Shown: piece by piece, positions 11,011 to 60,865 of the stretch
Layout: every line of letters starts with the position of its first letter
How positions within the stretch are numbered: position 1 is the first letter of the stretch
Assembly (NCBI GenBank): GCA_000993205.1
Contig: LBVU01000001.1
Location: 8,155 to 72,154, forward strand
Source: Candidatus Woesebacteria bacterium GW2011_GWB1_39_10
Lineage (GTDB): Bacteria > Patescibacteriota > Microgenomatia > UBA8517
Direction: 5' to 3'
DNA: 64,000 bases
Made by a program: the position numbers and the translations under genes
The notes under the pieces: generated by a model
Database searches by the model: none
What the model saw: the letters and a program-made list of their open reading frames with translations, nothing else
Told to the model about the DNA's origin: nothing

Positions 11011-11063
11011 ATAAAATATAAAATTTAACATTATCCACTTAATTACTATATAGTATTGAAGTA

Positions 11064-20710: not shown

Positions 20711-20800
20711 TTGACCTAATTATTCTAATTGCTCTAATTTTTAAATTGGGACTTATTTAGGACAATTAGATTAATTAGAACTTAGAAATTGTAGAGAGAT
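20701..20800. repeat. AT-rich CTAATT / AATTGGGA / AATTAGA intergenic repeat, copy 1 (between the tkt halves)
   Basis: Shares AATTGGGAyTTATTTAG...AATTAGA...TAATTAGAA with 60768-60865. Confidence 0.6.
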
Positions 20801-32883: not shown

Positions 32884-33402
32884 ATGGAAACACTGGAACA
32901 ATTATCAGAAAAAATATGGTGGGGTTACCTTGGGGAGGATCTTCAAAAACTTCTTAAGGAGTCGGAATTTATTTATTCTACAGTAAAAAGCTGGGGCGCG
33001 GATTTACCGGGTGGAAGACGAGAATTTGATGATTACTCATTTGTTGTTTTTCCTGCAGCCAAAGCCTACGAAGGTTTTTTAAAGAAACTTTTCCTGGACT
33101 TAAATTTTATTACAGATATAGATTATTATGGAAAACATTTCAGGATTGGTAAGGCCCTAAATCCGTCTCTTCCGAAGGAATCCCGACGTGACGGAGTTTA
33201 CGACAAGATTGTCAAGTATTGTGGAGGCGCGGAGCTGGCCGAAAAGCTTTGGGAAACCTGGAAAGAGTCACGGAATCTGATTTTTCATTGGTTCCCAAAC
33301 GAAAAGAATGCTATTTCACTTGAGGAATCCGGCAAAAGAATCGAAATGATAATTGGGGCAATCGATAGAGCTTTCAGGGAATGCAGATTAGATACTAAGT
33401 GA
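32884..33402 (+). CDS. hypothetical protein with a possible HEPN-like R-x4-H motif (SRNLIFH)
   Basis: 172 aa. The last codons and stop (LDTK*) are formed by GATACTAAGTGA repeat DNA. Confidence 0.35.
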   Translation: METLEQLSEKIWWGYLGEDLQKLLKESEFIYSTVKSWGADLPGGRREFDDYSFVVFPAAKAYEGFLKKLFLDLNFITDIDYYGKHFRIGKALNPSLPKESRRDGVYDKIVKYCGGAELAEKLWETWKESRNLIFHWFPNEKNAISLEESGKRIEMIIGAIDRAFRECRLDTK

Positions 33403-33470
33403 CTCGATACTAAGATATTGAGTGGGCGTGACTTTTTTCCAGGATCCTAGTATCATAGTATCATAGTATC
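33390..33470. repeat. GATACTA-type tandem repeats plus a (TAGTATCA)x3 octamer array
   Basis: agatactaagtgactcgatactaag ... tagtatcatagtatcatagtatcc. Confidence 0.7.
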
Positions 33471-33482
33471 CTTTTTTACTTT

Positions 33483-34139
33483 ATGACTGTCAAAACATCA
33501 AATATTTCGATATTAAAAAACGTCACGATCTACGCTACGTATCTGATCATAATTTGGGCGTTTTACAGATTTCTTTTCCGCTTCCCCGATGAAATTGAGG
33601 AGTTGGTTATCAAACCGATTGTTTGGCTCATTCCTCTTTTTTACTTTGTTAAAAAAGAAGGGTTTGGAATTTCTTCACTTGGGTTTACTTTTAAGAATCT
33701 TTTTCCTGCAATCTATCTCTCGATAGGGTTAGGCGCGGTATTCGTGATGGAGGGGGTTTTAACCAATTTCGTAAAATACGGAAAATTAAATTTTGGAGCA
33801 AATATTGGAAGCACTCCGCTTATGATGTCGCTTGGACTTTCTTTTATTACAGCTTTTTCTGAAGAGGCTGCTTTTAGGGGATATATTTTTAGCAGGCTCT
33901 CTTTTGCTCTTAAAAATGAATGGTCAGCGAACATTATCCAGACTCTTCTCTGGACGGGGATCCATGTTCCGATAGCGTTTTTTATTTGGGGTTATACTCT
34001 ACCGCAAGGAATCGTGTACTTAAGCTTAACGGCGATATTCGGACTTGGGAGCGCGTTCATTTTCGGTAGGACCAAAAATATTTTTGGAAGTATATTATTG
34101 CATGTTTTGTGGGAATGGCCAATAATTCTTTTTAGGTAG
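33483..34139 (+). CDS. CPBP-family intramembrane metalloprotease (CAAX protease / Abi domain)
   Basis: EEAAFRGYIF and FxxxH/W motifs. Multiple TM helices. Confidence 0.7.
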   Translation: MTVKTSNISILKNVTIYATYLIIIWAFYRFLFRFPDEIEELVIKPIVWLIPLFYFVKKEGFGISSLGFTFKNLFPAIYLSIGLGAVFVMEGVLTNFVKYGKLNFGANIGSTPLMMSLGLSFITAFSEEAAFRGYIFSRLSFALKNEWSANIIQTLLWTGIHVPIAFFIWGYTLPQGIVYLSLTAIFGLGSAFIFGRTKNIFGSILLHVLWEWPIILFR

Positions 34140-34147
34140 CTTCAAAC

Positions 34148-34184
34148 TTGACAAATTATTTCAATGTGATATCATGATATCACT
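34148..34184 (+). promoter_or_regulatory. promoter (-35 TTGACA) plus the 18-bp perfect palindrome GTGATATCATGATATCAC, a candidate VapB operator
   Basis: Palindrome at 34166-34183, directly upstream of the ATG at 34185. Confidence 0.45.
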
Positions 34185-34442
34185 ATGGTAGCTACAATAA
34201 TCAGACTTCCAGAAGAAGAACATGAATTTTATAAAGAGTATGCCTACAAAAATGGTATGAGTCTAAATGATTTTTTTAGGTTTTCTGCCCGAGAAATAGC
34301 GGGTAAAAAAGCAATTAAGAGCAAACATTCCTTTTTTGATCTTGGAACAAAGGTTGTGTTTAAAAGTGGCCCAAAAGACGGATCGATAAATCATGATAAA
34401 TATCTTTACGAATTTGAAGATAAGAAAATGCATTCTAAATGA
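34185..34442 (+). CDS. VapB-like antitoxin
   Basis: 85-aa ORF overlapping the downstream PIN gene by 4 nt. Confidence 0.45.
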   Translation: MVATIIRLPEEEHEFYKEYAYKNGMSLNDFFRFSAREIAGKKAIKSKHSFFDLGTKVVFKSGPKDGSINHDKYLYEFEDKKMHSK

Positions 34443-34840
34443 TTTTTGTAGACACCTCTGCGATAGCTGCCTTAACTTTTACGAAAGATTCGTTTCATTC
34501 ACGCGCAGAATTATGGTTTTCGGATCACCAAAAAGAGAATTTCATTGTTACAAATTTAGTGATAATCGAAATTCTGAATTGGGTAAGATATAGACTTGGC
34601 AAAAATAAAGCCATTGAATTAGGAGAAAAACTCTATTCAGGCAATGGAATTAGTATTGTTAAAGTTTCTCCTGAGGATGAAAAGAATGCTTGGAGGCTCT
34701 TTAAGAAATTAGGCGGAAAGGGTATTTCGATGGTTGATTGCACTTCTTTTGTTGTAATGAAGAGACTAAAAATTAAAAAGGTGTTTGCATTTGACACCGA
34801 TTTTAAAAAAGCAGGGTTTGACCTCCTTCCCGCGACTTGA
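34439..34840 (+). CDS. vapC: VapC-like PIN-domain toxin
   Basis: N-terminal MIFVDTSAI with conserved acidic residues. Confidence 0.7.
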   Translation: MIFVDTSAIAALTFTKDSFHSRAELWFSDHQKENFIVTNLVIIEILNWVRYRLGKNKAIELGEKLYSGNGISIVKVSPEDEKNAWRLFKKLGGKGISMVDCTSFVVMKRLKIKKVFAFDTDFKKAGFDLLPAT

Positions 34841-34877
34841 CTTCGATTGAATACAGTCCTACCATTACAATTACCCG

Positions 34878-35507
34878 ATGTTTAAGAAATATTTGTACGG
34901 AATCCCCCTTTTTGTCCTTGCTTTCGCAATTCTTTCGGTTTCGGTCATGAGATCTACAGCCGTATCTTATGTTTTTGCAACCCCGTTGTCCTCTCCGACA
35001 GCTGTATTAAATAAGGTTACTGAAATAGATTACGAACTTCCATTTCCGGGCAAGGTCTTACCGGATAGTATGTTTTGGGTATTTAAAGTCATGAGGGACA
35101 AATTGTGGTACGGACTGTCATTCTCTCATTTAAAGAAAGCCGAGTTAGCTCTTCTTTTTTCGGACAAACGTCTGGGTGCCGCCAAAATTTTATTTGAAAA
35201 GAAAAAGCCGGATATCGCGCTTTCTACATTGTCTAAAAGCGAGAGATATGTGGAAATCGCAACCAATGAGGAGGATAGGGCGAGAAAAGAGGGGGTAGAC
35301 ACCTCAAAGTTTTTGGAGAAAATGACGGTCGCCGCTCTTAAACATAGGCAGGTTATCGAGGAGGAGATACTGCCGATTTCTCCCGAAGACGCAAAACCGG
35401 AAGTTATCAGACTTGAGAACTACAGTAAAAATGCATACAAGACGTCGAGAGATGCGTTATATTCAAAAGGTAGGTCTGTTCCAATTAATCCGTTTGATAG
35501 GCCATAA
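34878..35507 (+). CDS. secreted/membrane-anchored hypothetical protein (DUF5667-like)
   Basis: Signal-anchor sequence followed by a helical domain. Confidence 0.4.
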   Translation: MFKKYLYGIPLFVLAFAILSVSVMRSTAVSYVFATPLSSPTAVLNKVTEIDYELPFPGKVLPDSMFWVFKVMRDKLWYGLSFSHLKKAELALLFSDKRLGAAKILFEKKKPDIALSTLSKSERYVEIATNEEDRARKEGVDTSKFLEKMTVAALKHRQVIEEEILPISPEDAKPEVIRLENYSKNAYKTSRDALYSKGRSVPINPFDRP

Positions 35508-35742
35508 CCAGCGCTATTGTTTATCTTTTTTGAACCATTCTTTCTAATTTCAAATTTTTGATTTCCGCAAGATTCCCCGCGAGCAAAATAAATTCAAAAA
35601 AACTGGCCTCAATCGACGCCTAAGGTGATACGTTTTGCTATAAATGTTGGCAGTTGATAGTCTAGAGGTAGTGTCTAATAATCACCTTTATCACTAGTTG
35701 TAGAGCGTTTGCTTTACACAAGTGAAAAGATAAAAACTAAAT

Positions 35743-36177
35743 ATGAAATGTCCATTTTGCGGAGCGGCAGATACGAGCGTTCTCGAAAGCAGGACTGTTG
35801 ATGGAAAAGTTAGGCGGAGGCGGGAGTGCAGCAAATGTGAGAAAAGATTTACAACTTTTGAAGAAGTAAAAAAAACCTTCCTCTGGGTGATTAAAAAAGA
35901 TGGACGGCGCGAGCCGTTTGATAAGGAAAAGATCAGAAGGGGAATATTGAGGGCAATACTTAAGCGTCCGGTCTCGATGGATCAGGTAGAGGGGGTTTTG
36001 GAAGATGTCGAACGGGAAATGCTTAAAGCGGAGGAAGCTGAGGTCCAAAGTAGAGCTATAGGAAATGCAATTTTGAAAAGACTTAAGAAACTGGATAAAG
36101 TAGCGTGGTTAAGATTCGCCAGCGTCTATCTTGAATTTGAAGACCTAAGTGATTTTGAAAAAGCCATAGAGAAGTAG
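35743..36177 (+). CDS. nrdR: transcriptional repressor NrdR (zinc ribbon + ATP-cone)
   Basis: MKCPFCG...CSKCEKRFTTFE zinc ribbon. ATP-cone motif KRDG.REPF. Confidence 0.85.
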   Translation: MKCPFCGAADTSVLESRTVDGKVRRRRECSKCEKRFTTFEEVKKTFLWVIKKDGRREPFDKEKIRRGILRAILKRPVSMDQVEGVLEDVEREMLKAEEAEVQSRAIGNAILKRLKKLDKVAWLRFASVYLEFEDLSDFEKAIEK

Positions 36178-36205
36178 GACTTCTCTGGCACTAGGTTCAG
36201 TCGCG

Positions 36206-36223
36206 CACACAACAAGTTGTGTG
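36206..36223. promoter_or_regulatory. candidate NrdR box (CACACAACAAGTTGTGTG palindrome)
   Basis: The inner 16 bp match 13/16 positions of the NrdR-box consensus acaCwAtATaTwGtgt. Confidence 0.4.
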
Positions 36224-36257
36224 GCTTCTGAAATCTATTGTTGAGAAATAGAATAAG

Positions 36258-36278
36258 ATCCTGAAACAAGTTCAGGAT
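36258..36278 (+). repeat. hairpin element, copy 1 (ATCCTGAA-ACAAG-TTCAGGAT); overlaps the AGGA Shine-Dalgarno of nrdJ
   Basis: Second copy at 58734-58754, inside recF. Confidence 0.6.
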
Positions 36279-36286
36279 GACAAAAT

Positions 36287-38746
36287 ATGCCGGAAACAAT
36301 ACAAATACAAAAACCAAAAAAGAAACACACAAATGGGAAAAGCAAAAAACATTTAACGAATGCAGATTTTGTTTTTGAAGCTCCTGCAAATTCTACGTTA
36401 CTTGAAGGGATAAGAAAAGACGTTTTTCTTGACAGATATTCACTTAAGGACGAAACCGGCACACCGCTTGAGCAGTATCCCGAACAAATGTGGAAGAGAG
36501 TAGCTTTGGGGATTTCCCAACAAGAAAAACCGGCGCTAAGGAAAGTTTGGGAAGAAAAATTCTATAACGCGATGAGCGGATTTAAATTTGTCCCGGCGGG
36601 GCGTATTCTGTCCGGCGCCGGGACTCCTTATCAGGTTACTTATTACAACTGTTATGTAATTCCATCACCCAAAGACAGTCGTGGTGGAATTATGGAAAAC
36701 ATTACGATGACAGTAGAAATTCAGGCCAGAGGCGGTGGAGTCGGGGTGAATTTAAGTTCTTTAAGACCCAGGGGATCAAGAGTTAAAAAAGTAAATGGGA
36801 CCTCCTCCGGCCCTGTTAATTGGGCCGCTCTTTATTCAACGGCAAATCATGATGTGATCCAGCAGGGCGGTTCCCGCCGTGGGGCCCTGATGATAATGAT
36901 TAATGATTGGCACCCCGATGTTGAAGAATTTATTACAGTTAAACAGGATCTCACGAAAATTCCCGGCGCGAATCTTTCAGTATGTGTCTCCGACGCATTT
37001 ATGGATGCTGTTAAAACGGATGCCGATTGGAATTTAGTCTTTCCGGATAATGCCTATTATAAGTACGACGATGAGTGGGATGGAGACTTGGACAAATGGA
37101 AGGAGAAAGATTATCCGCTGATAGTTCACAAAACCATAAAAGCCAGAGAACTATGGAATTTGATTGGAGAAGCAGCATGGAAATCGGCCGAGCCGGGGGT
37201 GGTTTTTATTGACAGGTACAATAAATTGAGTAATACCTGGTATTTTGAAAAAATCATTGCCACCAACCCGTGTGGAGAGCAGGGCTTGGGAGCTTGGGGG
37301 GTTTGCAACCTGGGGCATTTGAATCTTCCGTCATTCATTCACGACGGGGCTGTCGACTTTAAACTTCTTGCAGAACACGCCTCAATTGCTACACGATTTT
37401 TAGACAATGTGGTAGATGCCAACTATTATTTTTATGAAGAAAATAAAAAGGCGCAACTGAATATAAGACGCACGGGACTCGGAACTTTGGGACTTGCGGA
37501 TGCATTAATCAAAATGAAACTTAAATACGGAAGCCCAGAATCCTTGGGGGTTATCGAAAAAATATACACAACGATTCGCGACGCGGCTTATACGACTTCA
37601 GCGCTTCTCGCCAAAGAAAAAGGATCTTTTGGAGGGTTCAGTAAAGAAAAATACCTAAAAGGTGTGTTTATCCAAAAACTTCCGGTAAAAATTAAACACA
37701 TGATTTCTAACCACGGAATAAGAAATGCTATAATTTTGACCCAAGCACCGACCGGTACAATCTCTCTTCTTGCGGGAGTTTCTTCCGGTATCGAGCCGGT
37801 TTACGAATTTAGTTATAAAAGAAACGATAGAACGGGGGAGCATATTGTTAATCACCCTCTTTACGACGAATGGTTTAAGAATCATCCGTCGGAAAAGATT
37901 CCGGATTATTTTGTCAGTGCCAGTGCCTTAACCCCAGAGGATCATGTGAAAGTTCAGGCAATGATCCAAAATTTAACTGACTCCTCGATAAGTAAGACCG
38001 TAAATGCTCCCAATTCTCACACGGTGGAAGATGTTAAAAAACTCTACCAGCTTGCATATGAACTTGGGTGTAAAGGTGTTACATATTTTAGAGACGGAAG
38101 TCGAACCGGAGTGTTATCCAAAGTTGACGACAAGCCTCAAGAAACTAAGTCAATCGTTACAGAACGCCCCTTAAGGGTTGACGGAGCAACATATAGAATT
38201 CCAACCCCGCTTGGTGTTGCCTTTATTACAGTAAATCAAGACCCGCTGGGAAATCCTTTTGAGGTATTTATTACCATAGGGAAGGCGGGAAGTGAGGTGG
38301 CTGCCCTTGCCGAGGCATTGGGTCGTATGATTTCTACAACTCTCAGATTTGGAAATCACAAGCCTCCTATCGAGCGGGCGCGTGAGATTATGGAACAACT
38401 TAAAGGAATTGGCGGAGGCAGATCGGTGGGGTTTGGACCGAATAAAATAAGATCGCTTCCCGATGCTGTGGCACGGGCGATATCTCTTCATTTTGGTTTC
38501 GGGGCTGACAAACACGATGCTGTAAACGGGGTTACTTTGCAGGTTGGAATGACTGTTTTGGCAGATGGTGCAGTACCAATGGACACGGCTTTAGTCGATT
38601 CAGCACCCGTTCCTGCCGCGCCCTCACCTTTGTTTGCTCAGGCACCTGTTAAAGCCGGAGACATTTGCCCTTCCTGCGGAAGTAGCGCCCTAGTTTATGA
38701 AGAGGGTTGTGCAAAGTGCCATGTGTGCGGACATTCAGAATGCTGA
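36287..38746 (+). CDS. nrdJ: adenosylcobalamin-dependent ribonucleotide reductase (class II, NrdJ) with a C-terminal zinc ribbon
   Basis: NPCGEQ active-site motif and CNLG. C-terminal CPSCG...CAKCHVCG. Confidence 0.85.
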   Translation: MPETIQIQKPKKKHTNGKSKKHLTNADFVFEAPANSTLLEGIRKDVFLDRYSLKDETGTPLEQYPEQMWKRVALGISQQEKPALRKVWEEKFYNAMSGFKFVPAGRILSGAGTPYQVTYYNCYVIPSPKDSRGGIMENITMTVEIQARGGGVGVNLSSLRPRGSRVKKVNGTSSGPVNWAALYSTANHDVIQQGGSRRGALMIMINDWHPDVEEFITVKQDLTKIPGANLSVCVSDAFMDAVKTDADWNLVFPDNAYYKYDDEWDGDLDKWKEKDYPLIVHKTIKARELWNLIGEAAWKSAEPGVVFIDRYNKLSNTWYFEKIIATNPCGEQGLGAWGVCNLGHLNLPSFIHDGAVDFKLLAEHASIATRFLDNVVDANYYFYEENKKAQLNIRRTGLGTLGLADALIKMKLKYGSPESLGVIEKIYTTIRDAAYTTSALLAKEKGSFGGFSKEKYLKGVFIQKLPVKIKHMISNHGIRNAIILTQAPTGTISLLAGVSSGIEPVYEFSYKRNDRTGEHIVNHPLYDEWFKNHPSEKIPDYFVSASALTPEDHVKVQAMIQNLTDSSISKTVNAPNSHTVEDVKKLYQLAYELGCKGVTYFRDGSRTGVLSKVDDKPQETKSIVTERPLRVDGATYRIPTPLGVAFITVNQDPLGNPFEVFITIGKAGSEVAALAEALGRMISTTLRFGNHKPPIERAREIMEQLKGIGGGRSVGFGPNKIRSLPDAVARAISLHFGFGADKHDAVNGVTLQVGMTVLADGAVPMDTALVDSAPVPAAPSPLFAQAPVKAGDICPSCGSSALVYEEGCAKCHVCGHSEC

Positions 38747-38768
38747 AAGCATTCTGAATATGAACTCA
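38744..38768. terminator. perfect palindrome TTCAGAATGCT-GAA-AGCATTCTGAA overlapping the nrdJ stop codon, followed by an imperfect long inverted repeat (38772-38855)
   Basis: Read directly from the sequence. No clear T-run. Confidence 0.35.
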
Positions 38769-38861
38769 AATCTAATATCTCAAATCTCAAAACTGTTCTG
38801 GATTTTAAATTTTAGATATAGATTTGAATTTTGATATTTGAGTTTTGAGTTATAATACTTC

Positions 38862-39431
38862 ATGTCAATTTACACAAAAACAGGAGATGAAGGAACTACA
38901 AAGGTTTTTGATAAAAAATCCGGTCAACTCGTTGGCATACGTAAAGATTCTTGTACGATCGCAGCGATTGGCGCCATTGACGAACTGAATTCTTTTTTGG
39001 GAATAATAAAAGCAGAGATATTAGGATATAAAGATACTAAGATATTAAGTGAGAAAAAAACTGCAATAAAAATAGAAGAAATACAGGGGAATCTTTTTAC
39101 GATAAATTCAATTCTTGCCGGGGCAAACCTGAGGTTTTCTAAAACAAAAACTAAAAAACTGGAAAAAGAGATTGATAAATGGGAGGGAGAGTTGCCCGTC
39201 CAAAAAAACTTCATTTTTTACGGGGGAACTCCAAGAGCTTCACAGCTCTTTTATGCGCGTGCCATCTGTCGCCGTGCTGAGCGTGCTCTGGTAGTACAGA
39301 GTACAGAGTACAAAGTACCTAGCGAGTTAATGATGTATATAAATCGCCTGTCTGATTATCTGTTTATGATGGCGAGAAGCGAAAACTTCAAAAATAAAGT
39401 TAAAGAAAATTTTTGGAAAAGTTCAAAATGA
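38862..39431 (+). CDS. pduO: ATP:cob(I)alamin adenosyltransferase, PduO-type, with an in-frame repeat insertion
   Basis: YTKTGDEGTT motif. The QSTEYKV segment is encoded by a heptamer array. Confidence 0.75.
   Translation: MSIYTKTGDEGTTKVFDKKSGQLVGIRKDSCTIAAIGAIDELNSFLGIIKAEILGYKDTKILSEKKTAIKIEEIQGNLFTINSILAGANLRFSKTKTKKLEKEIDKWEGELPVQKNFIFYGGTPRASQLFYARAICRRAERALVVQSTEYKVPSELMMYINRLSDYLFMMARSENFKNKVKENFWKSSK
39294..39318 (+). repeat. tandem heptamer array (AGTACAR)x3.5 inside pduO
   Basis: agtacag agtacag agtacaa agtacc. Confidence 0.8.
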
Positions 39432-39656
39432 ATCTTGCTTAAAATATTCTATCGAGAGTTTTTCGAAAACGCCATCCAGCATTTTTAGTTGCTTATGAAT
39501 ATTATCTAGCGTCTCTTTTAATTCAGGCTTCAGCCTAAAGTCCAACACATTGTTTATTTCAGCATACTGCATTAGCAATTGTTTCCTTCGGTTTTCCACC
39601 CTTTATCTTTTCCGAAAGTTCTTCAGGTTCCATGAATCAATTATACAGCACAGGAC

Positions 39657-39691
39657 TTGACAAACTTTAAGTAACATGTTACTTTATATGT
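39657..39691 (+). promoter_or_regulatory. promoter (-35 TTGACA) plus the 16-bp perfect palindrome AAGTAACATGTTACTT, a candidate antitoxin operator
   Basis: Palindrome at 39669-39684, upstream of the ATG at 39692. Confidence 0.4.
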
Positions 39692-39946
39692 ATGTTAACT
39701 AAACGCACTAATGTATTGTTCACGGAGGAAGATCATGCGATGCTTACCAATTTAGCCAGAGAGTCCAATAAAACAATAGGGGAGCTTGTGAGACATGCTG
39801 TTAAAAAGACATACAAAGCTAGGGTGGTAAAAGGTGGTATTAACAAAAGTTTGGAGCTAGCAATAAAGAAGTCTTGGAAAGCTGTTCTTCACCCCGAAAT
39901 ACCTATTGATTACAAAGCTCTGATTGAATATGGCCGCAAATATTAA
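39692..39946 (+). CDS. RHH (CopG-like) antitoxin
   Basis: 84 aa. N-terminal ribbon-helix-helix-like segment. Confidence 0.5.
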   Translation: MLTKRTNVLFTEEDHAMLTNLARESNKTIGELVRHAVKKTYKARVVKGGINKSLELAIKKSWKAVLHPEIPIDYKALIEYGRKY

Positions 39947-40325
39947 AAATTTTGTTTTAGATGCTTCATTTTTACTATCAGTATTACTTCCAGATGAACA
40001 AGGAACTCAGGTGGCAAAAGCAAACGCCAAACTATTAGTTGACGAAAAAAACAACTTTTTTGCACCCAAATTATTAGAGTTTGAAGTTTTAAATAGTATA
40101 AAAAGCGCAATAGTTAACAAAAGAATTAAGAAGGGTTCGATAAACGATGTACTACACGCGTTTGAAAAAACTAGAATTGTCTATGTAGATATAGATAGGA
40201 AAAAAGTTTTAAATCTTTCGATAAAGAATAGTCTCAGTTTTTACGATGCCTCATATTTATATCTTACTAGAGCAAATAAGACTAAACTACTTACTTTAGA
40301 CAAGAAGCTCAAGATGCTACTATAG
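39924..40325 (+). CDS. PIN-domain toxin (VapC-like)
   Basis: FVLDASFLL and a later SFYDASYL acidic motif. Confidence 0.65.
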   Translation: MNMAANIKNFVLDASFLLSVLLPDEQGTQVAKANAKLLVDEKNNFFAPKLLEFEVLNSIKSAIVNKRIKKGSINDVLHAFEKTRIVYVDIDRKKVLNLSIKNSLSFYDASYLYLTRANKTKLLTLDKKLKMLL

Positions 40326-40388
40326 CCTCCTAGGCTAGAGCTAAAAAGCCATAGCTAAAAAGCTATGGAAGTTTTACAATAAGGTTGT

Positions 40389-40736
40389 ATGGCTGCCACC
40401 CCTGAAACATTAAGACCGGAAGTTCCTCAAGTTGTTGAGCGACAAGAGGAGTTTGTTGTTCCCGAAACTCTTTCGGGGAGTGGGATCAAGGTGGTGCAGA
40501 AAAATTTTAAAGCTCAGGTTAAAAACGATAAAGGAGTTCCCGTCATCCAAACTCCTCCGACCCAAGTAATTACTGTTCAACCTCCTGCAGATACAGTTGC
40601 TCTTACAGCCTGGTCCAAAGGGGACACAACATTGGGAGCGACATGGCTTGGGGTTTTTTGGCTGCGAGTGATCAAAAAGGCATTGCATTTTGGTTGGAAG
40701 GTACTCGGGCTACGCCCGACGGATACTAGTAACTAG
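40389..40736 (+). CDS. small hypothetical protein with a C-terminal hydrophobic helix, upstream of the coupling-protein-like ATPase
   Basis: 115 aa. The last codons plus stop (PTDTSN*) are formed by GATACTAG repeat DNA. Confidence 0.4.
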   Translation: MAATPETLRPEVPQVVERQEEFVVPETLSGSGIKVVQKNFKAQVKNDKGVPVIQTPPTQVITVQPPADTVALTAWSKGDTTLGATWLGVFWLRVIKKALHFGWKVLGLRPTDTSN

Positions 40737-40758
40737 ATACTAGATACTGGCGGCTAGG
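40722..40758. repeat. GATACTA heptamer tandem array (GATACTA GTAACTA GATACTA GATACTG)
   Basis: Read directly from the sequence. Confidence 0.75.
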
Positions 40759-40767
40759 TTTCTAAAT

Positions 40768-43101
40768 ATGTTTATAGATCAGATAAATTTTACCGGCATA
40801 TTGTTTGCAGCGATCGCGATTGCGGTCTTGATTTTAATGCTATCGGCTCTGGGGTATGCAATTTTTATATTTTTTAAGAATAAGAATAGGGAAGAGGCAT
40901 CAATTGATTCGGTTCTTTTGCAGGTGGCGCTTCCCAGGAATAACGAATCAAAAATTGATGTGATGGAGCAGTTGTTTTCATCGCTTTACACCTTAAAGAA
41001 GGGGGGTTGGAAACAGAAGTTTTCAATTCAACCCACAGTTTCTTTTGAAATTGTTGCCAAACAGGAAGATATCAGGTTTTATGTTTGGTGTCCCAAGAAA
41101 ATAAAGGATTTGGTAGAAAAACAAATTAACGGCGCATACGCAGATGCTGAGATAATTGAAATTGACGAATATAACGTTTTTACAAAAGAGGGCAGAGTTG
41201 CTTATAAGTCATTCCAACTGGGTAAAGGCAATTTTTATCCAATCAAAACCTTTAAAGATTTACCCACGGATCCAATGAGCGCCATTACCTCGGCTTTGGC
41301 CAAAATGGGCCCTGAAGAGGCGGCTGTTATCCAGGTGCTACTTTCACCTGCGGAAAGCGATTGGCAAAAAGAAGGGGGAAAGTTTATCTCCGATACTAAA
41401 AAACAGGAAAGCGACCCCGAAAAGGCAAAATATTCTACCCCTGCAAAGACCTTAGAGGCTGTTGAAAATAAAATCGCAAAACCCGGTTTTGAAACCTCTG
41501 TTCGCATTGTGGTCGTTTCGACCGATGAAGATTCAGCAAAAAGCCATGTAACGAATATTGCAGGGGCCTTTGCCCTGTTTGCCGGTGACTTAAACAACCT
41601 AAAAAGCAGAAAAATATGGAGAAAGGGATCGTTTATGGAAGATTTTCTTTACAGGTACCAGCCAATGTTCAATCTTTTTGGGAATCACACATCAATTTTA
41701 AATTCCGAAGAACTTGCCACGATCTTTCATTTTCCCAATAGACAGATAACAACACCTCACATTTTTTGGTTAAATTCAAAAACAGCGCCGGCCCCGGCAC
41801 AAATTCCAACGGAAGGTCTCTATTTGGGGGTAAGCAATTACAGAGGAATAAAGCGTCCGGTATTTTTGGGAAATGAAGACAGAATGAGGCATGTTTACAT
41901 CATCGGAAAAACCGGAACCGGAAAGTCTGAGATTTTGAAGGATATGGTTATTCAGGATATTAAAGAGGGGAAAGGTGTTTGTTTTATGGATCCTCACGGT
42001 GACGCGATTGAAGATATTTTAAAAATGGTTCCGCCGGAGAGGGCCGAAGATGTAATTTATTTTAATCCCAGTGACACTGAAAGGCCTTTAGGGCTTAATC
42101 TTCTTGAAGCCAGAACCGAGGACGAAAAGCATTTTGCCGCAACAGCTGTAATTAACATGATGTACAAACTTTTTGACCCCTACAAAACGGGAATTGTAGG
42201 GCCCAGATTTGAACATGCAGTCAGAAATGCCATGCTTACGGCAATGTACGAGCCGGGAAGCACATTTGTCGAAATTATGAGGATTCTGACCGACTCAAAG
42301 TTTGTTCAAGAGCTTTTGCCAAAAGTTACAGACCCGATTATTAGACGTTATTGGACAGATCAAATTGCCCAGACTTCCGACTTTCATAAATCAGAAGTTT
42401 TGGATTACATTACATCAAAGTTCGGAAGATTCGTTACAAATAAATTAATTAGAAACATAATCGGGCAATCTCAAAGTTCTTTTGATCTACGTAAAGTTAT
42501 GGATGAAGGAAAAATTCTTTTAATTAATTTAGCCAAAGGAAGTTTAGGAGAGGAAAACTCAAACTTTTTAGGACTAATCCTTGTTCCACGCGTTTTAATG
42601 GCTGCCATGAGCAGGGTGGATATGCCGATGGAACAAAGAAAGGACTTTTATTTCTACGTAGACGAGTTTCAGAATTTTGCCACACCAGATTTTGCTGTAA
42701 TTTTGTCAGAGGCCCGTAAGTACCGGCTTGGGCTTTGTGTCGCCAACCAGTTTATAGGGCAAGTTGAAGAAGAGGTTAAAAACGCAGTCTTCGGAAATGT
42801 TGGTACGATTGTCGCTTTCAGAGTTGGTGTAACAGATGCTAATTATTTGGCTCACGAATTTGCTCCCGTTTTCGGTGAAGATGATTTACTTAATGTTGAG
42901 CGTTATCATGCGTTTTGTAAAACAATAGTTAGCAACGAACCCGTTCCTCCTTTTTCAATGGACCTTACAAAAGACATGAGTAAACAAAAAGCCGCCGAGA
43001 GTGAACGAATTGCAGAAATCATAAAAGAAATGAGCCGTCTTAAATATGGACGAGACGAAAAATTAGTGGAAGCGGAGATAACCCGCAGAGCGAAGCTCTG
43101 A
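40768..43101 (+). CDS. FtsK/HerA/TrwB-superfamily P-loop ATPase with an N-terminal TM anchor (type IV secretion coupling-protein-like, TraD/VirD4/TrwB_AAD_bind-like)
   Basis: Walker A YIIGKTGTGKSE and Walker B YFYVDEFQNF. N-terminal TM helix. 777 aa. Confidence 0.55.
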   Translation: MFIDQINFTGILFAAIAIAVLILMLSALGYAIFIFFKNKNREEASIDSVLLQVALPRNNESKIDVMEQLFSSLYTLKKGGWKQKFSIQPTVSFEIVAKQEDIRFYVWCPKKIKDLVEKQINGAYADAEIIEIDEYNVFTKEGRVAYKSFQLGKGNFYPIKTFKDLPTDPMSAITSALAKMGPEEAAVIQVLLSPAESDWQKEGGKFISDTKKQESDPEKAKYSTPAKTLEAVENKIAKPGFETSVRIVVVSTDEDSAKSHVTNIAGAFALFAGDLNNLKSRKIWRKGSFMEDFLYRYQPMFNLFGNHTSILNSEELATIFHFPNRQITTPHIFWLNSKTAPAPAQIPTEGLYLGVSNYRGIKRPVFLGNEDRMRHVYIIGKTGTGKSEILKDMVIQDIKEGKGVCFMDPHGDAIEDILKMVPPERAEDVIYFNPSDTERPLGLNLLEARTEDEKHFAATAVINMMYKLFDPYKTGIVGPRFEHAVRNAMLTAMYEPGSTFVEIMRILTDSKFVQELLPKVTDPIIRRYWTDQIAQTSDFHKSEVLDYITSKFGRFVTNKLIRNIIGQSQSSFDLRKVMDEGKILLINLAKGSLGEENSNFLGLILVPRVLMAAMSRVDMPMEQRKDFYFYVDEFQNFATPDFAVILSEARKYRLGLCVANQFIGQVEEEVKNAVFGNVGTIVAFRVGVTDANYLAHEFAPVFGEDDLLNVERYHAFCKTIVSNEPVPPFSMDLTKDMSKQKAAESERIAEIIKEMSRLKYGRDEKLVEAEITRRAKL

Positions 43102-43190
43102 CGGGGGAGACTAGAGCCTAGATACTTAGATACTGGCAACTTCACTACTTGAGTTTTTCCTTTTAATATCCTAGTATCGGGTATCTAATC
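43100..43190. repeat. TAGATACT repeats (CCTAGATACTTAGATACTGGC ... CCTAGTATCGGGTATC)
   Basis: Shares TAGATACT(T)AGATACTGGC with 40735-40755. Confidence 0.65.
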
Positions 43191-43192
43191 AT

Positions 43193-44056
43193 ATGAATAT
43201 CGGTGTTATTGGCTACGGTTTTGTTGGGCGGGCTACAGGAGAAGGTTTTGTGTCAAATCCAAAAAACAAGGTTTTTTGGTATGACAAATTCAAGGAATCT
43301 CCAAATACGCTGGAGGAGGTTGTAAAGAAGTCAGACTTCGTTTTTGTCTGTGTTCCAACCCCGATATTTGAAGATTACTCCGGAATGGACATGGGTATAG
43401 TTATTGGTGTGGTTGACCAAGTCGCGGAAATTTTGTCCTCCTCCGCTAAAGCTACGGAGGATAAAGTTTTAATTATCAAATCTACATCACTGCCTGGTAC
43501 AGCAAAGAAATTGGCCATCAAGTATCCAAAGATCAACTTTATTATGAATCCGGAGTTTCTTACTCAAAAAAATGCAAACCATGATTTTCTTAATCCTTCA
43601 CGAACCGTGATCGGGGCAGAATCAAAAGATGTTGCCTTAAAAGTAATAAAAATTTATAAAACGATCCTTTCAAAGAATCAGCCATACGTTGTTACTGACA
43701 CCACTAGCGCGGAAGTAATTAAGTATATGAGCAATTTGATGTTGGCCAGTAAAGTCCTTCTTGCCAATGAATTTTACGAATTGTCTAAAAAGGTCGGGGC
43801 AAATTATTTGGATGTTCAAAAAGCGGTCGAAAGTGATCCAAGAATTGGCACACACCTCGGGGTTCCCGGGCCGGATGGCGATATGGGATTCGGGGGAGCG
43901 TGTTTCCCCAAAGACATGGTTGGCATACTCGGATTGGCTAAAAAACTCAAACTGGATGTTTCCGCTCTCGAAGCCATTTGGAAGAAAAATCTCAAAGTTA
44001 GGAAACACAGAGATTGGGAAGAAATGCCACAGGCTTTTAAGAAAGATACTAAGTGA
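43193..44056 (+). CDS. UDP-glucose/GDP-mannose 6-dehydrogenase-family protein (short form lacking the C-terminal nucleotide-sugar-binding domain)
   Basis: N-terminal GYGFVGR Rossmann motif. Catalytic Cys motif GFGGACFPKD. Terminal codons KDTK* come from repeat DNA. Confidence 0.65.
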   Translation: MNIGVIGYGFVGRATGEGFVSNPKNKVFWYDKFKESPNTLEEVVKKSDFVFVCVPTPIFEDYSGMDMGIVIGVVDQVAEILSSSAKATEDKVLIIKSTSLPGTAKKLAIKYPKINFIMNPEFLTQKNANHDFLNPSRTVIGAESKDVALKVIKIYKTILSKNQPYVVTDTTSAEVIKYMSNLMLASKVLLANEFYELSKKVGANYLDVQKAVESDPRIGTHLGVPGPDGDMGFGGACFPKDMVGILGLAKKLKLDVSALEAIWKKNLKVRKHRDWEEMPQAFKKDTK

Positions 44057-44095
44057 TTAGATACTAAGATACTAAGTAGGGATACAAAGCAGCTT
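44040..44095. repeat. GATACTAAG(T) tandem repeats
   Basis: agatactaagtgattagatactaagatactaagtaggg. Homologous to 33397-33425. Confidence 0.7.
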
Positions 44096-44120
44096 CAGAA
44101 TGGTATAATAGCCTCATTAC

Positions 44121-44192
44121 AGGCCTGTCGTTCAACGGTTAGGACACTTGTCTTATAAACAGGTGACAATGGTTCGACTCCATTCAGGCCTA
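44121..44192 (+). tRNA. tRNA-Ile with anticodon UAU (CCA not encoded)
   Basis: Manual cloverleaf fold. Acceptor AGGCCTG/CAGGCCT with A73, close to the E. coli tRNA-Ile acceptor. D-stem GTTC/GGAC. Anticodon stem CTTGT/ACAGG with loop CTTATAA. T-arm AATGG-TTCGACT-CCATT. Confidence 0.65.
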
Positions 44193-44204
44193 CACAGAAT
44201 TAAA

Positions 44205-44240
44205 TTTGACCAATTTGGCTAATTAGTCTAACTTGGGTAT
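44205..44240. repeat. direct repeat, left copy (CCAATTTGGCTAATTAGTCTAACTTGGG), flanking the four-helix-bundle gene
   Basis: The right copy at 44765-44815 overlaps the last codons of the ORF. Confidence 0.6.
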
Positions 44241-44789
44241 ATGGGTGGCTACAAAAACCTTCTTGTTTACAGGCTATCTGTAACAATTTTTGATTTTACT
44301 GTTATTTTTTGTGATAAATATTTATTTGATTTGAAGTTCAAAAGAACCGTTGAGCAAATGGTTCAGGCCGGGAGAAGTGGCAAACAAAACATAGTCGAAG
44401 GCTCTAAGGAAATTTCTTCAGCCTCGGACATGATGCTTACCAGTGTTAGTAGGGCTTCTTACTCGGAACTTTCAGAAGACTATGAAGACTATTTAAGGCA
44501 ACGGCATTTACCAATTTGGGATAAAAATGATCCGAGAGTGTTAAAAATTAGAAGTTTTAAAGAAACAATTAGCAAGGAAACTAGTTTGTCCAATTTGTCA
44601 AAGTGGACCAATTTAGACTACAACAACTCTGAAAACTTTGCAAATTTAATGGTTTGTTTGTGTATGAAACAGGGCTATTTGTTAGATCAACTTATAAGGG
44701 CAAAAGAACAAAAATTCGTACAAGAGGGTGGATTTAGGGAAAACTTGTTTAAGAAGCGCAGGGAAAACAAATTTGGCAAATTGGACTAA
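44241..44789 (+). CDS. four-helix-bundle protein (23S rRNA intervening-sequence protein-like / TIGR02436-like)
   Basis: Core RTVEQMVQAGRSGKQNIVEGSKEISSASDMMLTSVSRASYSELSEDYEDYL resembles the four-helix-bundle family consensus (R.A.SI..NIAEG ... GS..EL). Confidence 0.5.
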   Translation: MGGYKNLLVYRLSVTIFDFTVIFCDKYLFDLKFKRTVEQMVQAGRSGKQNIVEGSKEISSASDMMLTSVSRASYSELSEDYEDYLRQRHLPIWDKNDPRVLKIRSFKETISKETSLSNLSKWTNLDYNNSENFANLMVCLCMKQGYLLDQLIRAKEQKFVQEGGFRENLFKKRRENKFGKLD

Positions 44790-44815
44790 TTAGTCTAATT
44801 GGGCAAATTAGAGTT
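44765..44815. repeat. direct repeat, right copy (CAAATTTGGCAAATTGGACTAATTAGTCTAATTGGG)
   Basis: Matches 44205-44240. Confidence 0.6.
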
Positions 44816-45671
44816 CTATAAGGGTTTGTTTCTTTCCAGGTTCGGTTATTTGGGCAAGCTCCAGATATCTTTCAGTAGTAGAAAGACGCTTGTGTCCTGA
44901 AACCTGAGAAAGAAGGACAATATCCACTCCGGCTTTAAGATTTTCCACCATAAAAGTTGTTCTTAAATCGTTTACAGAATAACTTGGAAGTTCGGCCCTT
45001 TGCATGTATCTGGAAATTGAGGCCCTGATGTTTCTTACTGCCAGTGGTTTACCGTTTTTGCTGATAAAAACATAAGGGGAATCGGATTTAGGCCTAATTT
45101 TCATATAAGAATCAAGAACCTCTTGGGCCGGTTTGTTCAAAGGAGCTGTTCTTTCCGGTTGGGTGGCATAAGATTCAATTTTAAGAGATCCGTCTGTTGA
45201 ACGTTCAATCTTGAGATTTGCAACCTCAGAGATTCTAAGGCCGGTTTGTAGGATAAGTTCGACTATGGCCGCAATTCTGACATCGTTTCTTACTACGTCC
45301 CTGAGGGCCCTGTACTCAAGCTGTGAGAGGAATTTGGGTAAGGCATTGTCAATCTTAGGGTGGGCAACAGAGGAACTTGGGTCAAAGCTGATTGCGTTTT
45401 CTGTAATCATCCATCTAAAAAATGTCTTAACGGCGTTTAGCTTGCGGCTAACGGACTTGGGTGTGTATTTGTCGGCCAAAAGCTGGTCACGGAATGAATC
45501 CAAATCCTCTGGTTTTACCTGATCGGGGGTGGCTCTTTCCCTTTTTAACAAATAGCCGGTAAGTTGTTCAAGATCGCTTCTATATGCAAGAATAGTCGCA
45601 GGAGAGCGCCCTTTAACTTTGAGGGACTCTATAAATTTGGGAAGCAGATTTTTGATTGTATCTTGTGTCAT
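44808..45671 (-). CDS. tyrosine site-specific recombinase, XerC/XerD-like
   Basis: N-terminal core-binding segment (ILAYRSDL). Catalytic R..H-x-x-R..Y segment (GLRISE, HKRLSTTERYL). Confidence 0.75.
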   Translation of the reverse strand: MTQDTIKNLLPKFIESLKVKGRSPATILAYRSDLEQLTGYLLKRERATPDQVKPEDLDSFRDQLLADKYTPKSVSRKLNAVKTFFRWMITENAISFDPSSSVAHPKIDNALPKFLSQLEYRALRDVVRNDVRIAAIVELILQTGLRISEVANLKIERSTDGSLKIESYATQPERTAPLNKPAQEVLDSYMKIRPKSDSPYVFISKNGKPLAVRNIRASISRYMQRAELPSYSVNDLRTTFMVENLKAGVDIVLLSQVSGHKRLSTTERYLELAQITEPGKKQTLIEL

Positions 45672-45740
45672 ACTATATGCTTAGAGGCTAATTATACCTC
45701 ATATTTTGTGAATGTCAACATTACAGGATGTAATTTACCT

Positions 45741-46139
45741 ATGAAAAACGATTTTGTCAAGAGGCTAAAAGTTAAGTTTGATAAGCTTGGCGGGTACGTT
45801 ATTTGGATTTTGGTCGTGCTTTTGACCCTTTCTTTGGTTCAAAATATAGGTAAAGTTAAGAGGATTAGAGGGGAAATTGCTGCCGAAAAGGCGAAAATTG
45901 TAAAGATGAAAGCCGCCAATGAGATTCTTGCCAACCAAGTTGCCCAGGCTCAAAAACCCGAGTTTATAGATAAAGAGATTAGGAATAAGCTTGGACTGGT
46001 TAAGACGGGGGAAACAATAGTTGTTTTGCCCAATGAGGAGGTTTTAAGAAGTTTGGCGCCAAAACTAGAAACTGAGCAGGAAGCCCTGCCTGATCCTAAT
46101 TGGAAGAAATGGGTAAATCTATTCTTGCTCCAAAAATAA
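45741..46139 (+). CDS. FtsB/DivIC-like septum formation initiator (start chosen at the ATG 45741 rather than 45564, which overlaps the recombinase)
   Basis: N-terminal TM helix followed by a coiled coil (RIRGEIAAEKAKIVKMKAANEILANQV). Confidence 0.55.
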   Translation: MKNDFVKRLKVKFDKLGGYVIWILVVLLTLSLVQNIGKVKRIRGEIAAEKAKIVKMKAANEILANQVAQAQKPEFIDKEIRNKLGLVKTGETIVVLPNEEVLRSLAPKLETEQEALPDPNWKKWVNLFLLQK

Positions 46140-46502
46140 CCTCCCCAGATTCTTGGATGAATCCACGTTCAGACGAACCGTGTTTTTCTGTTTGTTGCGG
46201 GGTCAGGAGTTGCGCCTGACCTGAAAGATTATGAGCCTTTCGTGCACTGTACACTACCCCGCATGTATCTAACCTCGGAATTATAACATTTTGTTCGTGT
46301 AACTCCAAAACCAAAACCACGCTACCATAATTCGAGTTATAGTAGTATGAGGCAAGCTATTGGTCATTTGAGTGTGAAATGCTAAAATAGCCGTATGTCA
46401 GGGTAGCCCCGCCTGCATCCGCCAGCAACTGCGTAGCTGTGGGCGGAAGCATTGCGGGCAGGTCAGTGGTAGTAGCGGACGTTTCATGATACATATTTGG
46501 AG

Positions 46503-46540
46503 CCTGGGTAGCTCAGTTGGTTAGAGCGTGGCAATCATGA
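46503..46540 (+). other. orphan partial copy of the tRNA-Met 5' half (acceptor 5' strand + D-arm + anticodon stem 5' side)
   Basis: CTGGGTAGCTCAGTTGGTTAGAGCGTGGCAATCAT duplicates the start of the tRNA at 46550 with 2 mismatches. Confidence 0.6.
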
Positions 46541-46549
46541 AATAAATTT

Positions 46550-46626
46550 GACTGGGTAGCTCAGTTGGTTAGAGCACGGCAATCATAACGCCGGGGTCGA
46601 GAGTCCGAATCTCTCCCCAGTCACCA
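46550..46626 (+). tRNA. tRNA-Met (anticodon CAU), CCA encoded
   Basis: Manual fold. Acceptor GACTGGG/CCCAGTC. D-arm GCTC-AGTTGGTTA-GAGC. Anticodon loop ATCATAA. T-arm GAGAG-TCCGAAT-CTCTC. 3' end ACCA. One A-C mismatch at the base of the anticodon stem. Confidence 0.7.
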
Positions 46627-46638
46627 AATTTATTGCTA

Positions 46639-46700
46639 ACAGGAATTTCATTTCTGTTATAACGCTGAGGTCGAGGGTTCGAATCCCTCCCCTGGCACCA
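46639..46700 (+). other. tRNA 3'-half-like fragment (anticodon-loop remnant through T-arm, acceptor 3' strand and CCA), preceded by a 7-bp-stem hairpin
   Basis: TTATAACGCTGAGGTCGAGGGTTCGAATCCCTCCCCTGGCACCA. No matching 5' acceptor strand upstream. Confidence 0.5.
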
Positions 46701-46712
46701 AATGCGCAACAG

Positions 46713-46773
46713 ACAGGAGTCGGGCTCCTGTCATAAGCGTCAGGTCACAGGTTCGATCCCTGTTGCCGGCACA
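46713..46773 (+). other. second tRNA 3'-half-like fragment preceded by a hairpin
   Basis: ACAGGAGTCGGGCTCCTGT hairpin, then CATAAGCGTCAGGTCACAGGTTCGATCCCTGTTGCCGGCACA. T-arm present. No 5' half. Confidence 0.45.
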
Positions 46774-46948
46774 GGGAATATGGGAGAAAAATTTGTTTCC
46801 AGTGTCTTAGATTTACCACCTTCCTACGAGGAGGTAGTGGCCATACAGGGGGAGCGGTTCACTTCGAAAATTCGATGAACACTCACAGTGTTGTAGTTTC
46901 TCAGAAATATGTTGAGTGAGATGAATGTAAAGTTAGTGTTAGGTATTC

Positions 46949-51249: not shown

Positions 51250-51285
51250 ATACTTCAATACTATATAGTATTGAAGTGATGTAAT
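51250..51285. repeat. 26-nt perfect palindrome ACTTCAATACTATATAGTATTGAAGT (terminator-like); partial copy at 11040-11070
   Basis: Read directly. Shares ACTATATAGTATTGAAGT with 11048-11068. Confidence 0.6.
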
Positions 51286-60767: not shown

Positions 60768-60865
60768 AATTAACCTAATTACTAATTAACCTAATTGACC
60801 TAAACAAGCTCCAATTGGGATTTATTTAGAAATTAGAATAATTAGAGTAATTAGAAATTTAAATA
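60768..60865. repeat. AT-rich CTAATT/AATTGGGA/AATTAGA intergenic repeat, copy 2
   Basis: Matches 20701-20800. Confidence 0.6.

Follow-up and report, generated by a model that had tools for sequence, protein, structure and literature searches.

Inverted short-repeat arrays at gene boundaries of a Woesebacteria genome and their association with S23p four-helix-bundle genes

GATACTA clusters and the gene ends that they overlap

We analyzed a 64,000-nt stretch of the genome of Candidatus Woesebacteria bacterium GW2011_GWB1_39_10 (contig LBVU01000001.1, positions 8,155 to 72,154), here called the window, for short tandem repeats of the heptamer GATACTA that lie at its gene boundaries. The loci carrying these arrays host ordinary chromosomal genes of a Patescibacteria (candidate phyla radiation, CPR) genome. 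The region encodes penicillin-binding proteins, a weakly matching HEPN-like protein, a CAAX protease, PIN toxin pairs, NrdR, ribonucleotide reductase (RNR), a cobalamin adenosyltransferase, a VirD4/TrwB-like ATPase (the coupling ATPase), a short UDP-sugar-dehydrogenase-like (DH-like) protein, tRNA-Ile(TAT) and a Xer-like recombinase. Relatives were collected by scanning species-representative genomes for the ATPase gene, which yielded 80 loci at 62–97% identity, nearly all of them labelled Woesebacteria or Microgenomates; L-numbers denote the compared loci (Woesebacteria relatives, metagenome contigs and plasmids). The order ATPase–(DH)–tRNA-Ile was kept across Woesebacteria, and the locus is not a mobile island; an integrative element at tRNA-Ile was rejected on the same ground. 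The tRNA-Ile gene itself (anticodon TAT, 44121–44193) follows the locus throughout Woesebacteria.

GATACTA occurred 15 times as an exact match on the two strands of the window, compared to 3.48 ± 1.8 in dinucleotide-preserving shuffles, none of which attained 15 in 100 trials. Of these matches, 11 fell in four intergenic clusters, and a twelfth, at 39033, was part of an in-frame array. Tandem Repeats Finder reported arrays of period 7/8 at 33444–33470, 40722–40748, 43119–43134 and 44043–44076. A previous interpretation made from the letters and open reading frames (ORFs) alone, referred to below as the sequence-only reading, had described tandem arrays in all four clusters. The repeat enrichment was confirmed, but clusters 1 (33391–33470) and 3 (43107–43185) turned out to be inverted pairs rather than simple tandem arrays, with forward units, a loop of ~27–37 nt and then reverse-complement units. 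No ORF was present inside either loop. Clusters 2 and 4 consist of one forward arm each.

The left arm of cluster 1 (33390–33420, + strand) reads AGATACTAAG-TGACTC-GATACTAAG-ATATTGAG, with forward units at 33391 and 33406, and supplies the DTK codons and the TGA stop (33400–33402) of ORF 32884–33402. It is followed by a loop (33421–33447, + strand) with the −35-like hexamer GTGACT (33428–33433) and a T-run; this loop, GCGTGACTTT, is kept in L004. The right arm (33448–33477, − strand) is complementary to the left one and has three TAGTATC units with a period of 8 (33448–33470, starting at 33448, 33456 and 33464). Read on the + strand, it includes a −10-like hexamer, TATCAT; T6 follows at 33472–33477, and the next ATG is at 33483. 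Cluster 2 (40722–40749, + strand) comprises the units GATACTA, GTAACTA, GATACTA and GATACTG, which supply the DTSN codons and the TAG stop (40734–40736) of ORF 40389–40736; L002 carries an almost identical array.

The left arm of cluster 3 (43107–43134, + strand) reads GAGACTA, GAGCCTA, GATACTTA and GATACT. It begins 5 nt past the coupling-ATPase stop (43099–43101), which is thus outside the array, and its forward units at 43121 and 43129 are GATACTT and GATACTG, not exact GATACTA. In the loop (43135–43171, + strand), TTGAGT (43149–43154) forms a −35-like hexamer 17 nt ahead of TAGTAT, and TTGAnT is invariant here in five genomes. The right arm (43172–43185, − strand) consists of TAGTATC and GGGTATC, at 43172 and 43180, of which TAGTAT provides the DH-like gene (ATG at 43193) with a −10-like hexamer. 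Cluster 4 (44045–44087, + strand), GATACTAAG-TGATTA-GATACTAA-GATACTAA-GTAGGGATACA, supplies the DTK codons and the TGA stop (44054–44056) of the DH-like ORF 43193–44056, and its last, degenerate GATACA unit abuts the promoter-like extended −10 of tRNA-Ile, TGGTATAAT (44101–44109). Clusters 1 and 4 have nearly the same left arm: counted from AGATACTAAGTGA, the two agree at 29 of 32 bases.

The three ORFs said in the sequence-only reading to end inside arrays (32884–33402, 40389–40736 and 43193–44056) do exist and end in this way. The first and third share the terminal DNA gat act aag TGA (33391–33402 and 44045–44056); the second closes with gat act agt aac TAG (40722–40736). That reading had gone on to propose that repeat insertion set the stops and remade the C-termini. 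The arrays do supply the final codons and the stop, but we saw neither truncation nor functional re-engineering, only unconserved tails of 3–8 residues. Across the 80 Woesebacteria loci the conserved protein was intact up to the array and nothing was truncated, and no ortholog was found that ends in DTK without the repeat. Nor did the comparative data across relatives tie the arrays to the coupling-ATPase locus, as had been suggested.

The tails vary accordingly from genome to genome. The DH-like orthologs run to MPQAFKK and then have 1–4 variable residues (K, AK, TK or ATSR); a GATACT tail occurs only in the window (DTK*) and in L007 (DTE*, then TTAGATATTGAG), and the array is present in both. 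The DH-like proteins of L001 and L002 end ATSR*, read into a different array, of ACTAGT units. The HEPN-like orthologs end KEC(K/R)(I/L)*, to which the window appends DTK, L004 appends DTRRPDPA from the homologous element, and L002 appends NTNNPTTTNAQ from a different array. A 115-aa protein is conserved to HFGWKxxG, followed by a tail of variable length, with PTDTSN* common to the window and L002. Each forward array closes 2–3 of the three frames within 7 codons, because the unit carries TAA or TAG and its period of 7–8 is not a multiple of three. A cassette lying over a native stop therefore gives the upstream ORF 3–8 additional residues and a new stop. The array-encoded tails are a mechanical by-product of unit sequence and period. 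The earlier interpretation is thus partly supported, being right on the stop codons and wrong on their significance; the inverted architecture and the link to four-helix-bundle genes described below were both absent from it.

Array cassettes around four-helix-bundle genes

The GATACTA arrays belong to a wider class of 7–9-nt tandem arrays in these genomes. No single unit dominates: the 64 kb contain at least five unit families (GATAYTA, CTAATT/AATTGG, CTCAAAT, AGTACAR and GAAATCC). Between the RNR and adenosyltransferase genes there is a hairpin of four CTCAAAT units, a loop and four ATTTGAG units (38765–38851, + strand), with a predicted RNA fold of −25 kcal/mol (z = −3.3). Arrays of CTAATT and AATTAG in the same forward-then-reverse layout lie at 20711–20798 and 60768–60862 (both + strand) and share the core AATTGGGAYTTATTTAG. 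When period-7 and period-8 arrays with ≥2.8 copies were counted in 1.48 Mb of Woesebacteria DNA, non-coding arrays outnumbered coding ones 55 to 45, even though non-coding DNA makes up 16% of the total.

A relation emerged between inverted arrays and one gene family. All six small genes bracketed by inverted arrays encode proteins of PF05635, "23S rRNA intervening-sequence protein" (S23p; E-values 1e-31 to 1e-37), which also match TIGR02436, "four helix bundle protein", and the upstream and downstream flanks of these six genes pair at −35 to −55 kcal/mol. Conversely, six of the seven S23p genes of Woesebacteria were flanked by arrays. Among 1367 called genes, ten had an array within 70 nt on each side; four of the ten were S23p genes and three the suffix variant TIGR04258 (Fisher p = 5e-8 for S23p alone). 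The window has a sister cassette of this kind at 44195–44812 (+ strand), in which inverted 9-nt arrays (44203–44236, of the AATTTGRCY type, and 44768–44809) surround a gene at 44241–44789. Its 182-aa product contains a TIGR04258 four-helix-bundle suffix domain (47 bits) and matches TIGR02436/PF05635 weakly. GATATTA units were intermixed with GATACTA in the S23p cassettes of L001, L037 and L044, and in L001 the unit GATATTAA occurs both around S23p and in an ORF-less hairpin between the ATPase and DH genes. Separately, three of the seven Woesebacteria S23p genes adjoin an RNR gene. L117 (100–820) and L186 (8600–9180), unrelated metagenome contigs fetched only because they contain a GATACTA array, each have an S23p-like gene bracketed by tandem arrays, of the CTAGGATA type and the TTTAAAT type, respectively.

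The same sites are occupied differently in related genomes. The site between RNR and adenosyltransferase holds S23p, in either orientation, in L001, L037 and L044, and the empty hairpin at 38765–38851 in the window. Full, empty and one-arm states were found at orthologous sites between the RNR and adenosyltransferase genes, between the coupling ATPase and DH genes, and between FtsH-like and PolA-like genes. In the window, the RNR stop codon is straddled by a perfect 12-bp hairpin (38733–38759; ATTCAGAATGCT gaa AGCATTCTGAAT), the left arm of which is coding; it is kept in L001, directly 5′ of the S23p cassette. Orthologous intergenic regions are indeed array hotspots. The spacer between coupling ATPase and DH is ~16 nt (TGATATTCTTCAAACTATG) in several genomes and elsewhere contains arrays of GATATTAA, TAGAATC, GTAGTTA or GTAGTGAAG, while the spacer between RNR and adenosyltransferase has a different unit in nearly every genome. 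In L003, L011, L026, L032 and L055 the ATPase TGA stop overlaps the −10 of the next gene (TGATATTCTTCAAACTATG).

Arrays were also found within genes. An in-frame array of GATAYTA-family octamers at 39016–39049 (+ strand; GATATTAG GATATAAA GATACTAA GATATTAA, read as AEILGYKDTKIL) constitutes a 9-residue insertion in the cobalamin adenosyltransferase that is common to L001 and missing in six other orthologs. The frame stays open because one of the units is mutated from TAA to AAA. In-frame arrays of the GAAATCC type occur in three neighboring genes (50677–50708, 51887–51926 and 52965–52996; KNPKSEIRNPK), and in-frame AGTACAR units in two unrelated genes (17557–17583 and 39293–39318; QSTEYK). Arrays were identical in eight independent assemblies from different samples, one of which had 66 mismatches in 4065 bases (1.6% diverged); the arrays are therefore not hypervariable, with no contingency-type variation in copy number among these assemblies. 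An exact-pattern scan of metagenome contigs for GATACTANGATACTANGATACTA gave 119 matches in very mixed organisms (GC 15–60%), mostly arrays in one orientation, with the inverted form in only a few (L089 and L130). The unit alone is therefore not diagnostic.

A Woesebacteria S23p was compared by tblastn to plasmids, giving 38 records, mostly from Nostocales, from which 13 S23p genes were taken along with one control, the gene for the accessory protein Avd of a diversity-generating retroelement (DGR). Twelve of the 13 were flanked on both sides by tandem arrays of short repeats, most of them heptamers, and in about ten of these cases the two arrays were an inverted pair of one unit. The set spans Cyanobacteriota, Bacteroidota, Alphaproteobacteria and Gemmatimonadota, and the units differ between hosts: GGGTGTA/TACACCC in Calothrix, GTAGGGA/TCCCTAC in Nostoc, GGAGATA in Picosynechococcus, AGGTGAC in Anabaena, AAGGGAA in Geminocystis, GGCAGAA in Stanieria, AAGGTTY in Riemerella, the GGACAGA type in Azospirillum and the CTCCTGC type in Gemmatirosa. 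Pseudanabaena has its two arrays in direct orientation, and those of Nostoc PCC 7120 differ in unit from one side to the other. The Avd control gene had no flanking heptamer arrays and adjoined a reverse transcriptase gene. The link across phyla thus comes from small samples of 7 + 13 genes. In four of the cyanobacterial plasmids (L202, L204, L205 and L211), S23p cassettes were wedged within operons, between cas6 and cas4 (twice), cmr2 and cmr3, and the RNR beta and alpha genes.

Several other features of the window were noted. Rfam at gathering thresholds returned two tRNAs over the whole window, with no match at the arrays and no rRNA. The apparently intergenic stretch 45672–46948 contains a DivIC-like ORF (~45741–46139, from gene calls) and two tRNA-Met genes, and around 46500–46630 there are duplicated tRNA-like fragments (GGGTAGCTCAGTTGGTTAGAGC, twice). 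Many genes look leaderless, with a −10-like hexamer 6–8 nt 5′ of the ATG and no Shine–Dalgarno sequence. A 26-nt palindrome, ACTTCAATACTATATAGTATTGAAGT, is intergenic at 51252–51277 and has a near-copy in another intergenic region, at 11037–11062; it looks like an operator or a separate small repeat family.

Relation to known repeat systems

Cyanobacteria have been known to carry intergenic tandem heptamers since 1990, and Xanthomonas and Beggiatoaceae were added later. The feature described here is a CPR form of such arrays and of the stems of intervening sequences (IVSs). In the IVS of Coxiella, S23p lies within a 28-bp terminal stem that is cut by RNase III, with 2–3 tandem GACAGAT heptamers at the cut site (PMC4990558). 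Like the cassettes described above, the rRNA IVSs of Coxiella burnetii and Leptospira have terminal inverted repeats that form a long stem around a PF05635 ORF, the tandem heptamers (GACAGAT, two or three copies) adjoin the ORF, and ORF-less and ORF-decaying versions exist (PMC4990558). They differ in that they sit in rRNA helices 9, 25 and 45, whereas the elements of the window lie between protein-coding or tRNA genes, have arms made up wholly of tandem 7–9-nt arrays and, in the four GATACTA copies, have no ORF. The rRNA IVS stem is a substrate of RNase III, which by analogy might also cut the window stems. The GATACTA elements therefore share with IVSs inverted repeats that could form a long stem (clusters 1 and 3) and the tandem heptamers, but not the enclosed PF05635/TIGR02436 ORF or the location in 23S rRNA.

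The overlap of heptamer arrays with stop codons is already known from TAACTGA in Beggiatoaceae. This heptamer occurs in Beggiatoaceae, Cyanobacteria and Bacteroidetes in 2–6 tandem intergenic copies, near start codons; 13–14 sets overlap the upstream stop codon, with forward repeats giving stops in three frames, and some copies are in frame at protein ends, as in the window (MacGregor 2015, PMC4679880). TAACTGA is, however, one unit used genome-wide, is almost never inverted (one case), and has no reported link to S23p (PMC4679880), whereas the window arrays include several unit families and inverted pairing is common. Of the hallmarks of intergenic heptamers, we therefore found two or more tandem copies of 7–8 nt, enriched between genes, and stop-codon overlap, but not a single dominant unit. 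In Xanthomonas, GGGAATC arrays form 70–75 convergent pairs, with the two members on opposite strands, an inverted-array architecture identical to that described here (Rehm 2015, PMC4692102). Together with the Nostoc GGGGA(T/C)T heptamers and the short tandemly repeated repetitive (STRR) heptamers of cyanobacteria, these also resemble our arrays in being intergenic and in recurring between the same genes of related species with varying length and sequence. The Xanthomonas and Nostoc units are G-rich, have been discussed as G-quadruplex formers and have no cargo gene noted, in contrast to the A+T-rich window units with their stop triplets (PMC4692102).

Avd (bAvd) is a sequence relative of S23p, through weak PF22296 and NF033474 matches. 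It differs in that the control gene has no heptamer arrays and stands beside a reverse transcriptase, to which the window cassettes have no link. Repetitive extragenic palindromes and bacterial interspersed mosaic elements (REP/BIME), mycobacterial interspersed repetitive units (MIRUs) and MITEs (miniature transposable elements with inverted repeats) are small palindromic or repeated intergenic elements in operons, and MIRUs overlap the stop and start codons of the flanking genes. Each such family has a conserved unique sequence, whereas the window cassettes are defined by an architecture of inverted short units, the sequence of which is free. No paper in the open-access literature was found to state the association of S23p with arrays as a general rule or to link the two beyond Coxiella, although such an absence is no proof.

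Interpretation of the GATACTA clusters

The architecture, the four-helix-bundle association, the polymorphism at orthologous sites and the stop-codon mechanics were observed directly. The explanation that we favor, somewhat guardedly, is that the GATACTA clusters are ORF-less relatives of IVS-like cassettes that sit where genes meet in a very compact genome, because GATAYTA cassettes enclose S23p in relatives, a sister cassette is present in the window, and the same layout recurs in four other phyla. Each cluster would represent one arm, or the two arms together, of a small cassette bounded by inverted arrays of tandem 7–9-nt units, clusters 1 and 3 being complete, ORF-less hairpin forms and clusters 2 and 4 single forward arms. 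In read-through RNA, pairing of the arms may give a stem of 17–27 bp, like that formed by the terminal repeats of rRNA IVSs. RNase III could cut this stem, or the stem could punctuate or end the upstream transcript; that of cluster 1 would also have a U6 tail. A −35/−10-like promoter for the next gene might be provided by the loop together with the first right-arm unit.

Several results weigh against this explanation. None of the four GATACTA clusters encloses an ORF, and a search of the 64-kb window and of the 10 kb further left revealed no GATACTA-flanked S23p gene; an exact-protein look-up at the right edge of the window gave no match. Descent from S23p cassettes is argued from the common unit, architecture and sites rather than from a traced deletion. 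At the junctions inspected there was no target-site duplication, and no transposase or other mobility function was identified. The duplexes of clusters 1 and 3 (17–27 bp, ~−20 to −28 kcal/mol) correspond to RNA folds no better than those of shuffled sequences (z = −1.0 and −0.5). The GATACTA hairpins also have no sense-strand bias, the antisense duplex being slightly more stable if anything, and the evidence for selection on them at the RNA level is weak; a sense bias is seen, by contrast, in cassettes that bear an ORF (e.g. −43.5 versus −27.6 kcal/mol). A signature of RNase III was not found in the loci of ~20 kb per genome, a coverage at which this result is uninformative. The left arm of cluster 3 is missing from L010, L012, L014 and L061, which have the right-hand units and the −35-like box only, so that the right arm may be an old promoter region to which the left arm was added locally. 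Finally, sharing of units within a locus was only ~2-fold above that between genomes (p = 0.02). The proposal that each genome has its own unit was dropped as a strong claim on account of this modest enrichment and of unit families common across Woesebacteria.

A rival explanation is a more local origin, in which the right-hand units are duplicated −10-like hexamers from the promoter of the downstream gene, an inverted copy was added later as the left arm and makes a terminator or insulator hairpin for the upstream gene, nothing was inserted, and S23p genes merely settle at such places. In its favor, TTGAnT-17-TAGTAT is kept 5′ of the DH gene in the window and the same four relatives, with the left arm in the window only; GTGACT-17-TATCAT is common to the window and L004, T6 directly follows the cluster 1 stem, and −10-like hexamers just ahead of the ATG are frequent in this region. 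However, a promoter consensus scan found region-wide matches not above chance (26 vs. 27 expected), and a terminator scan flagged no array: the stems are A+U-rich, the loops ~27–37 nt, and the T6 tail is present in cluster 1 only. The class of Rho-independent terminators, which requires a short G+C-rich stem, a small loop and a U-tract, was rejected. The near-identical 32-nt left arms of clusters 1 and 4 stand at unrelated genes, which favors copying between sites over a local origin. A GATAYTA-family unit also lies in frame inside a gene, and it would be left unexplained why 7 of the 10 array-bracketed genes are of the four-helix-bundle type. We consider local punctuation unlikely. Plain slippage-prone simple sequence repeats, neutral or of the contingency type and piling up between genes because coding DNA does not tolerate them, would have no tie to S23p. 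Heptamer repeats of this sort are over-represented in many bacteria, according to work cited in PMC4692102, the units here are very diverse, and array density in non-coding DNA is about double what its 16% share predicts. Yet the arrays were identical in the eight assemblies, including the diverged one, a small number of unit families turn up repeatedly in different genomes and at different sites, and neither the inverted pairing nor the bracketing of four-helix-bundle genes is anywhere near random, making this account quite improbable.

MITEs would likewise have inverted ends, a length of ~80 nt, several copies per genome and presence or absence at orthologous sites. The copies here, however, share only the repeat arms, with internal sequence conserved just between orthologous copies (the window and L004), and single-arm arrays are common. 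The inspection of junctions for target-site duplications, though not systematic, was negative, and no transposase is linked; the integrase at 44808–45671, a XerC/D-like tyrosine recombinase, occupies the same position in relatives. A MITE family is therefore a poor candidate. The positions of the clusters on both sides of the coupling-ATPase gene, near neighboring promoters, might suggest operators or iterons bound by a regulator of this VirD4-like neighborhood, but the orthologous spacers in the 80 relatives have other units or none while the coupling gene is still 70–97% identical. The same unit is also found at the boundary of the HEPN-like and CAAX-protease genes and inside the adenosyltransferase gene, the 7–8-bp period does not match helical phasing, and no regulator gene is linked, so we give this idea very little weight. 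The least credible in our view is an adaptive reshaping of C-termini by insertions, as the sequence-only reading would have it. Three ORFs and the DH-like gene of L007 do end in array-encoded residues, but the tails are of 3–8 residues and differ between genomes (DTK, DTE, ATSR, DTRRPDPA, NTNNPTTTNAQ), and they follow native tails that are themselves variable and unconserved; neither purifying selection on the tail codons nor a phenotype of tail removal was seen here.

Returning to the cassette explanation, a broader reading is possible, which we put forward tentatively. In it, S23p (PF05635/TIGR02436) genes and inverted tandem-heptamer arrays would make up one type of cassette, distributed from Patescibacteria to Cyanobacteriota, Bacteroidota, Proteobacteria and Gemmatimonadota. 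The rRNA IVSs would be the special case that landed in rRNA, and intergenic heptamer arrays (the cyanobacterial STRRs, the Xanthomonas GGGAATC pairs, TAACTGA and GATACTA) would be ORF-less forms or footprints. S23p might bind, make or move the arrays.

What the present analysis adds is a tie between intergenic arrays and S23p cassettes across phyla, seen at this locus and in its relatives, where corresponding sites are full in some genomes and empty or one-armed in others. Two old puzzles, the role of the "S23p/IVS protein" family and the purpose of intergenic tandem heptamers, are thereby put into one structure. For the annotation of compact CPR genomes, it means that short C-terminal tails and stop codons can be by-products of cassettes, and that such arrays can also sit in frame within genes.

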